Positions 13,362 through 13,880 of a stretch of 64,000 bases of DNA are shown piece by piece. The stretch comes from Escherichia coli (GTDB lineage Bacteria > Pseudomonadota > Gammaproteobacteria > Enterobacterales > Enterobacteriaceae), in the NCBI RefSeq assembly GCF_003018255.1, contig NZ_CP027440.1; one strand, 5' to 3'. Both the position numbers and the translations under genes were made by a program. The first letter of the stretch is position 1, and each line of letters opens with the position of its first letter. The notes below the pieces were generated by a model. The model saw only the letters and a program-made list of their open reading frames with translations, did not search any database and was not told the origin of the DNA.

Positions 13362-13390
13362 TAGACAGAGGGGTGGGAAGTCCGTATTAT
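13362..13390 (+). promoter_or_regulatory. sigma70 promoter of the argX-hisR-leuT-proM tRNA operon
   Basis: -35 TAGACA (13362-13367), 17-bp spacer, -10 TATTAT (13385-13390), GC-rich discriminator CCACCCCCGC, AT-rich UP-like tract upstream; about 20 nt upstream of tRNA-Arg. Confidence 0.6.
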
Positions 13391-13411
13391 CCACCCCCGC
13401 AACGGCGCTAA

Positions 13412-13488
13412 GCGCCCGTAGCTCAGCTGGATAGAGCGCTGCCCTCCGGAGGCAGAGGTCTCAGGTTCGAATCCTGTCGGGCGCGCCA
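13412..13488 (+). tRNA. argX: tRNA-Arg (anticodon CCG)
   Basis: Cloverleaf GCGCCCGUAGCUCAGCUGGAUAGAGC...CUCCGGA anticodon loop...GGUUCGAAUCC T-arm, ends in encoded CCA. Confidence 0.9.
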
Positions 13489-13545
13489 TTTAGTCCCGGC
13501 GCTTGAGCTGCGGTGGTAGTAATACCGCGTAACAAGATTTGTAGT

Positions 13546-13622
13546 GGTGGCTATAGCTCAGTTGGTAGAGCCCTGGATTGTGATTCCAGTTGTCGTGGGT
13601 TCGAATCCCATTAGCCACCCCA
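13546..13622 (+). tRNA. hisR: tRNA-His (anticodon GUG)
   Basis: GGUGGCUAUAGCUCAGUUGGUAGAGC with the extra 5' G typical of tRNA-His; anticodon loop AUUGUGAUU; GGUUCGAAUCC T-arm; CCA end. Confidence 0.9.
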
Positions 13623-13642
13623 TTATTAGAAGTTGTGACAAT

Positions 13643-13729
13643 GCGAAGGTGGCGGAATTGGTAGACGCGCTAGCTTCAGGTGTTAGTGTCCTTACGGACG
13701 TGGGGGTTCAAGTCCCCCCCCTCGCACCA
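13643..13729 (+). tRNA. leuT: tRNA-Leu (anticodon CAG), long variable arm
   Basis: GCGAAGGUGGCGGAAUUGGUAGACGC D-arm; anticodon loop CUUCAGGUG; long variable arm; GGUUCAAGUCC T-arm; CCA end. Confidence 0.9.
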
Positions 13730-13771
13730 CGACTTTAAAGAATTGAACTAAAAATTCAAAAAGCAGTATTT

Positions 13772-13848
13772 CGGCGAGTAGCGCAGCTTGGTAGCGCAAC
13801 TGGTTTGGGACCAGTGGGTCGGAGGTTCGAATCCTCTCTCGCCGACCA
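13772..13848 (+). tRNA. proM: tRNA-Pro (anticodon UGG)
   Basis: CGGCGAGUAGCGCAGCUUGGUAGCGC; anticodon loop UUUGGGA; GGUUCGAAUCC T-arm; CCA end. Confidence 0.9.
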
Positions 13849-13854
13849 ATTTTG

Positions 13855-13880
13855 AACCCCGCTTCGGCGGGGTTTTTTGT
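13855..13880 (+). terminator. Rho-independent terminator of tRNA operon
   Basis: Hairpin CCCCGCTTCGGCGGGG immediately followed by TTTTTTGTTTTC. Confidence 0.8.

Follow-up and report, generated by a model that had tools for sequence, protein, structure and literature searches.

The four-tRNA operon argX-hisR-leuT-proM in a 64-kb Escherichia coli segment: genes, signals, conservation and published control

A cluster of four closely packed tRNA genes lies in the E. coli DNA analysed here (the window, a single stretch of 64,000 nucleotides), and raises the question of whether these genes form a transcription unit of their own, and whether what has been published on the corresponding unit of K-12 applies to them. 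A sequence-only reading had drawn the unit from 13362 to 13880, which starts with the -35 hexamer's first base and reaches into the T run of the terminator. In our analysis the locus was taken to be the argX-hisR-leuT-proM operon, with its own sigma-70 promoter and intrinsic terminator, regulated and processed as published (probability about 0.97). The genes, the signals, the identity to K-12 and the conservation were observed, and the regulation and processing come from published experiments on identical sequence. The operon in this window is real, ordinary and already known in detail, and its presence here brings nothing new. It serves as an anchor, marking the window as an E. coli chromosome segment that matches K-12 around 3.98 Mb. 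Its biological weight lies in the sole tRNA-His gene, a predicted-essential tRNA-Pro(UGG) gene and the essential character of the unit. It further serves as a standard model in work on stringent control and on how RNase E and RNase P process tRNAs.

Four tRNA genes identical to the K-12 unit

Exactly four tRNA genes were found by ARAGORN in the window, all on the + strand. The first, argX (13412-13488, +), encodes a tRNA-Arg(CCG) of 77 nt including its CCA, and was called by ARAGORN, by Rfam RF00005 (64.1 bits) and in the K-12 annotation. The second, hisR (13546-13622, +; 69.7 bits), encodes a tRNA-His(GUG) of 77 nt including the encoded G-1; ARAGORN placed its start at 13547, and the K-12 annotation, which takes in the genome-encoded G-1, at 13546. 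They are followed by leuT (13643-13729, +; 48.5 bits), a tRNA-Leu(CAG) of 87 nt with a long variable arm, and by proM (13772-13848, +; 65.8 bits), a tRNA-Pro(UGG) of 77 nt. The gathering score of RF00005 is 29, and the E-values of the four genes were at most 1.4e-8. The sequence-only reading had named these four genes in this order, packed into about 440 bp, and had offered tRNA prediction as the check; ARAGORN did not fail, it and Rfam both called all four at their places, and the measured span is 437 bp (13412-13848). The 3' CCA is encoded in all four genes (13486-88, 13620-22, 13727-29 and 13846-48), which to our knowledge is the rule for all E. coli tRNA genes.

Several other candidates over the cluster were rejected. 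Open reading frames of 42-64 aa, for example 13361-13489 and 13490-13618 on the - strand and 13544-13738 on the + strand, were not regarded as genes, as they lie inside tRNA sequence. Rfam matches to rsmX, PrrF, SpF41 and anti-hemB over 13743-13882, overlapping proM and the terminator, were attributed to chance, with 18-26 bits against gathering scores of 49-90.

Pairwise alignment with E. coli K-12 MG1655 (NC_000913.3) gave 100% identity over 13319-13899. The nearest mismatches were at 13304 and 13318 in the upstream flank, and at 13900-13901, 13930 and 13937 in the downstream flank. The operon itself is without differences, sharing with the K-12 unit the gene order, the spacers (57, 20 and 42 nt), the promoter, the terminator and the neighbours; the differences in the flanks indicate that the strain is not K-12 itself. 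In the MG1655 annotation, argX, hisR, leuT and proM are b3796-b3799, between thrP (b3795) and aslB (b3800). The names and the order agree with those proposed from the letters, where the known K-12 arrangement had been recognised. In the window, the operon is bordered by open reading frames at 11924-13309 and 13995-15230, and so likewise lies between thrP (yifK) and aslB. The layout at the operon in strain 20Ec-P-124 is the same, with thrP upstream and aslB downstream.

Promoter, start region and control of transcription

A consensus scan of 12800-14400 returned a sole sigma-70-like site, TAGACA and TATTAT separated by 17 bp (13362-13390), which agrees with the consensus at 10 of 12 positions. 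Since one match, against a mean of 1.8 in shuffled sequences, is within chance expectation, the promoter call was based on conservation and on the literature. For the conservation analysis, one genome per species was scanned with the hisR-leuT junction, which yielded 120 Enterobacterales loci that were re-annotated with ARAGORN, and the 110 nt upstream of argX were aligned for 111 sequences (102 of them distinct). In the -35 hexamer (13362-13367, +), T, G, A, C and A were invariant in 111/111 and position 2 was A or G. In the -10 hexamer (13385-13390, +; 17 bp past the -35), positions 1, 2, 5 and 6 were kept in 111/111 and position 4 in 109/111, and position 3 was free. Most positions of the spacer, whose 17 bp fall within the 16-18 bp of sigma-70 promoters, varied freely among about 110 species. 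It is this combination of invariant hexamers and a free spacer that makes the promoter convincing, and the near-consensus promoter of the earlier reading stands.

Two flanking elements proposed in that reading were also found. The discriminator CCACCCC (13391-13397, +; -7 to -1 if the start is C13398) is G/C at six of its seven positions, and C13392 and C13397 were near-invariant in the 111-sequence alignment. Upstream of the -35 hexamer is an A/T-rich UP element (13341-13360, +), composed of a T-rich distal part (13341-13351) and an A tract (13352-13360); the A/T tract at 13343-13356 reads AATTTATTTAAAAA. Within it, A13353-A13356 were kept in 100-111 of the 111 species and T13345-13347 in 99-109, and the alignment showed conservation of the A tract over 13352-13357 and of the T-rich stretch over 13344-13351. 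The A tract 13352-13360 is situated at -46 to -38, the place of the proximal subsite in the UP consensus.

Further upstream, the alignment of the 111 sequences revealed a conserved block (13320-13339, +), which is likely an upstream activating sequence (UAS). Its first part, 13320-13334 (GCACAAACCGTAACC), fits the Fis core GnnYRnnnnnYRnnC; counted from the inferred start, its centre is at -71, close to where Fis sites upstream of promoters typically lie. Each of the six constrained positions in this core is conserved (G in 111, C in 103, A in 110, T in 108, A in 91 and C in 109 of 111). The central base is C or G where the consensus GnnYRnnWnnYRnnC wants A/T, and the degenerate pattern occurs about once per 256 positions by chance. 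Judged from sequence, this is a putative Fis site. Searching the literature turned up no direct evidence of Fis binding at argX or hisR. Activation of the argX promoter by upstream sequences was reported by Hsu et al. 1991, as cited in PMC5137449.

The transcription start was placed at C13398 on published descriptions. In the text of PMC5137449, the initiating nucleotides of the promoter in footprinting are given as C, then C and G, then C, G and A. The same study describes a fragment spanning -265 to +135, whose restriction sites were mapped onto the window. The synthetic precursor of an RNase E study, GGG-AACGGCGCTAAG..., has, as described in the text of PMC3985628, the length of a transcript from C13398. 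The start is thus given as about C13398, possibly up to 13401, on the text of the two papers. From C13398 the transcript would carry a 14-nt 5' leader, CGCAACGGCGCUAA (13398-13411, +), removed by RNase P. Positions 13397-13410 were kept in at least 106 of the 111 Enterobacterales sequences.

The K-12 promoter of the argX unit is named pArgX (formerly 'argT'). Together, ppGpp and DksA inhibit it both in vitro and in vivo, and the in vivo effect requires DksA (PMC5137449). With ppGpp alone its activity was down by about 30%, with DksA alone it was up about 2.5-fold, and with both it was about 10% (PMC5137449). A fragment from -40 to +5 responded in vitro in very nearly the same way (PMC5137449). 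The stringent-type behaviour assigned to the promoter in the sequence-only reading therefore holds as a phenotype; as a mechanism of the rrnB P1 type it does not, given the stability of the open complexes.

An rrnB P1-type mechanism would mean that the G/C-rich discriminator makes a short-lived open complex, which ppGpp and DksA destabilise further. Several features are alike in the two promoters: a UP element, an upstream activator site near -71 (in pArgX the putative Fis site), a G/C-rich discriminator and inhibition by ppGpp/DksA, which in pArgX brings activity down to the level of about 10% given above. However, open complexes at pArgX barely decayed over a 3 h heparin challenge, and ppGpp and DksA altered this little; the authors explained the inhibition by productive complexes forming more slowly and by dead-end complexes (PMC5137449). 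Stimulation by DksA alone is a further difference from rrnB P1. Because the published complexes are extremely stable, pArgX was not placed in the rrnB P1 kinetic class, its control being ascribed to the formation of productive complexes and not to open-complex lifetime, and it is doubtful that the promoter works as rrnB P1 does.

In our reading of the operon as a unit with its own promoter, RNA polymerase with sigma-70 would start at pArgX, at about C13398, assisted by the A/T-rich UP element and by the conserved upstream block, probably a Fis site at -71. Because of its G/C-rich discriminator, the promoter would respond to supercoiling and to ppGpp plus DksA, and its output would consequently fall during amino-acid starvation. 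The orthologous hisR (argX) operon of Salmonella enterica, with which the comparison was made through the papers, is likewise situated downstream of yifK, and its G/C-rich discriminator governs the supercoiling response; according to the text of PMC8422995, changes of C/G to A/T in the discriminator of the Salmonella hisR promoter alter that response.

The start region of pArgX resembles that of another tRNA operon. The promoter of metT-leuW-glnUW-metU-glnVX shares CCCCGCAACG[G/C]CG[C/A]TAAG from the discriminator through roughly the first 15 transcribed bases. In pArgX the shared bases are near-invariant among the 111 species. In the comparison of window positions 13391-13412 with the K-12 metT promoter (L125, 222-350, - strand), 16/18 positions matched across CCCCGCAACG-CG-TAAG. 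The metT promoter also has in common with pArgX a similarly spaced CAAAC-GT-AC block upstream, a T/A tract and T-GAC in the -35 hexamer. The two operons differ in their tRNA genes, in the leader (about 38 nt in metT, 14 in argX) and in the metT hexamers, CATAAT at -10 and TTGACG at -35. In addition, a 13-nt palindrome, GGCGCTAAGCGCC, occurs at 13404-13416, made up of leader bases and the opening 5 nt of argX, and the leader GGCGC could pair with the 5' strand of the argX acceptor over a UAA loop. This leader-acceptor hairpin is present in the minimum-energy fold of 13398-13495 (leader plus argX), but as the fold is no better than those of shuffled sequences (z -0.58), the hairpin was not taken as evidence of function.

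These likenesses might indicate that leader and discriminator constitute a distinct, undescribed start-region module common to tRNA promoters. If so, the module might be what sets the 'dead-end complex' behaviour seen with ppGpp/DksA, or it might briefly cover the acceptor strand while transcription is under way. The existence of such a module is nevertheless improbable, the alternative being a passive leader, and the likeness between the argX and metT start regions and the palindrome may well have been noted in older literature. The sequence for gauging the spread of the shared start region among E. coli tRNA and rRNA promoters is CCCCGCAACGSCGMTAAG.

Terminator, upstream boundary and processing

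Scanning and folding identified an intrinsic (Rho-independent) terminator at 13854-13884 (+), with a 9-bp stem, a UUCG loop and a U-rich tail. The stem-loop (13854-13875) reads GAACCCCGC-TTCG-GCGGGGTTT, with 6 G-C pairs in the stem, and is followed by TTTGTTTT. Its fold, at -16.4 kcal/mol (z = -3.96), was matched in stability by none of 200 shuffles, which bears out the strong terminator that the earlier reading had described. A perfect-stem hairpin followed by a T run was found within 60 nt past the last Pro gene in 104/111 species. The stem sequences differ between species (for example CCCCGC/GCGGGG, GGCCAGC/GCTGGCC and CCTGTC/GACAGG), from which it follows that structure, not sequence, has been maintained. 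The primary transcript would thus be about 480 nt long, carry the four tRNAs and end at this terminator.

At the 5' side the boundary is less sharp. In the scan of 12800-14400, the interval from the thrP stop codon (13309) to the promoter (13310-13361) contained no terminator-like site. As no terminator separates thrP from the operon, some read-through from thrP is likely, and the 5' side of the operon is likely not fully insulated. In Salmonella, a 2.0 kb yifK (thrP) transcript enters the tRNA operon, and its contribution to the tRNAs was deemed minor (PMC3879156). Transcription of thrP may add a minor share of tRNA precursor here.

Taken further, the missing terminator and the 2.0 kb Salmonella transcript could suggest that the four tRNAs are made mostly as the 3' portion of thrP (yifK) mRNA, the promoter-like site being incidental. 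Yet the Salmonella yifK mRNA was detectable only with a promoter-up mutation, and the same study credits most tRNA transcription to a strong promoter just upstream of argX (PMC3879156). The invariance of the hexamers in 111 species also speaks against an incidental site, as does regulated transcription in vitro from the -40 to +5 fragment alone (PMC5137449). A mainly thrP-derived origin of the tRNAs is accordingly very improbable, and transcription from pArgX is the reading retained.

The published processing of the precursor agrees with the form of the spacers. Five RNase E sites, E1 to E5, have been mapped in the precursor; they fall in A/U-rich stretches that are single-stranded, and the enzyme reaches them mostly by direct entry (PMC3985628). 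The argX-hisR spacer (13489-13545, +; 57 nt) contains RNase E cleavage sites. The hisR-leuT spacer (13623-13642, +; 20 nt) is A/U-rich and unstructured, with a minimum free energy of 0 kcal/mol, and the leuT-proM spacer (13730-13771, +; 42 nt) is A/U-rich with a weak fold (-3.0 kcal/mol). When the three spacers and the leader were folded singly, no structure beyond that of shuffled controls was detected (z = 0.26, 0.56, -0.71 and 0.38); the first of these values is that of the argX-hisR spacer, which is not significant, and the third that of the leuT-proM spacer. The idea that the spacers are hidden structured RNAs was rejected, as folds that match shuffles fit single-stranded A/U-rich RNase E sites. 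The spacer folds and the published sites in single-stranded segments thus agree.

To release proM, RNase E cleaves at distances of 3, 4 and 15 nt upstream of its 5' end, and the mature 3' end arises from a single RNase E cut right after the CCA, by which the whole terminator is removed (PMC5291269). This cut falls at the AUUUU linker (13849-13853, +) between the CCA of proM and the terminator stem (PMC5291269). ATTTTG directly follows the CCA in 48/111 species, and the other variants seen are likewise A/T-rich. Clones with the whole terminator retained were also recovered in vivo (PMC5291269). In the window, RNase E would accordingly be expected to cut in the A/U-rich single-stranded spacers and directly past the CCA of proM, RNase P would make the 5' ends with G-1 of tRNA-His kept, and 3' exonucleases would trim argX, hisR and leuT.

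Distribution, and other features of the window

The genera among the 120 Enterobacterales loci include Citrobacter, Enterobacter, Pantoea, Erwinia, Dickeya, Brenneria, Hafnia and Edwardsiella. Of the 120 loci, 89 had the order Arg-His-Leu-Pro; a further 15 had it with 2-4 copies of Pro, and one had it with GCG as the Arg anticodon. The remaining 15 showed shortened versions, where the stored locus probably ends; wherever a locus is long enough, the order holds. The length of the argX-hisR spacer ranged from 41 to 119 nt among species. The Pro gene was identical in 119 of about 130 copies across species.

The 15 species with tandem tRNA-Pro(UGG) genes at the operon end include Erwinia, Pantoea, Hafnia and Cedecea (loci L012, L015, L020, L025, L030, L032, L046, L051, L070, L073, L082, L093, L100, L117 and L122), and four copies were present in L093. 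The GCG anticodon belongs to the argX orthologue of the metagenome-assembled Proteobacteria bacterium OH_SBB_50 (L021, 4376-4452), which has three differences from the window copy; it could be a real change or an assembly error. In E. coli O157:H7 F8092B, a tandem duplication of leuT within the operon gives Arg-His-Leu-Leu-Pro (L123, 4325-4411 and 4551-4637).

Within E. coli, 13250-14000 was matched in 5425/5426 complete genomes, with tRNA-Arg, -His, -Leu and -Pro annotated there and thrP flanking. The core 13318-13885 had at least 99% identity in 5428/5429 matching records, and was essentially full length in 5425 genomes. Only one copy of hisR per genome was found in 5425/5426 genomes (median one place). 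The operon query gave a median of four matching places per genome, which probably reflect near-identical tRNA-Leu(CAG) copies elsewhere, presumably leuQPV. Two observations point to such copies: the one weak match listed lies under a tRNA-Leu, and hisR alone gives one place per genome. A single genome of the 5426 lacked any match to either hisR or the operon; since there is no other tRNA-His gene, the likely cause is a fault in the assembly.

In a deletion study, the transcription unit was essential, and hisR and proM were predicted as essential genes (PMC11480407). That the cluster might be a tRNA array borne by a mobile element or phage, or consist of pseudogenes, and not be core translation genes, could be suggested by the frequent occurrence of tRNA clusters on phages and genomic islands, but this is already refuted by the distribution data, with the same thrP-aslB site in K-12 and an unrelated strain, near-universal presence in the complete genomes at the identity given above, and 8 of about 21,000 matching places on plasmids, and it is at odds with a sole tRNA-His gene in an essential unit.

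Other features of the window were recorded in passing. Between aslB and aslA, at 15199-15387, several sub-threshold matches to naRNA4 (RF02564) and ES036 were returned on both strands. They look like REP-type palindromic repeats, because naRNA4 is a REP-derived RNA. The GlmZ small RNA was matched by Rfam downstream of aslA (17468-17674, +) with 218 bits against a gathering score of 60. A full-length match to RF02757, 'Erse small RNA', was found at 63223-63474 (+), with 316.6 bits against a gathering score of 138.
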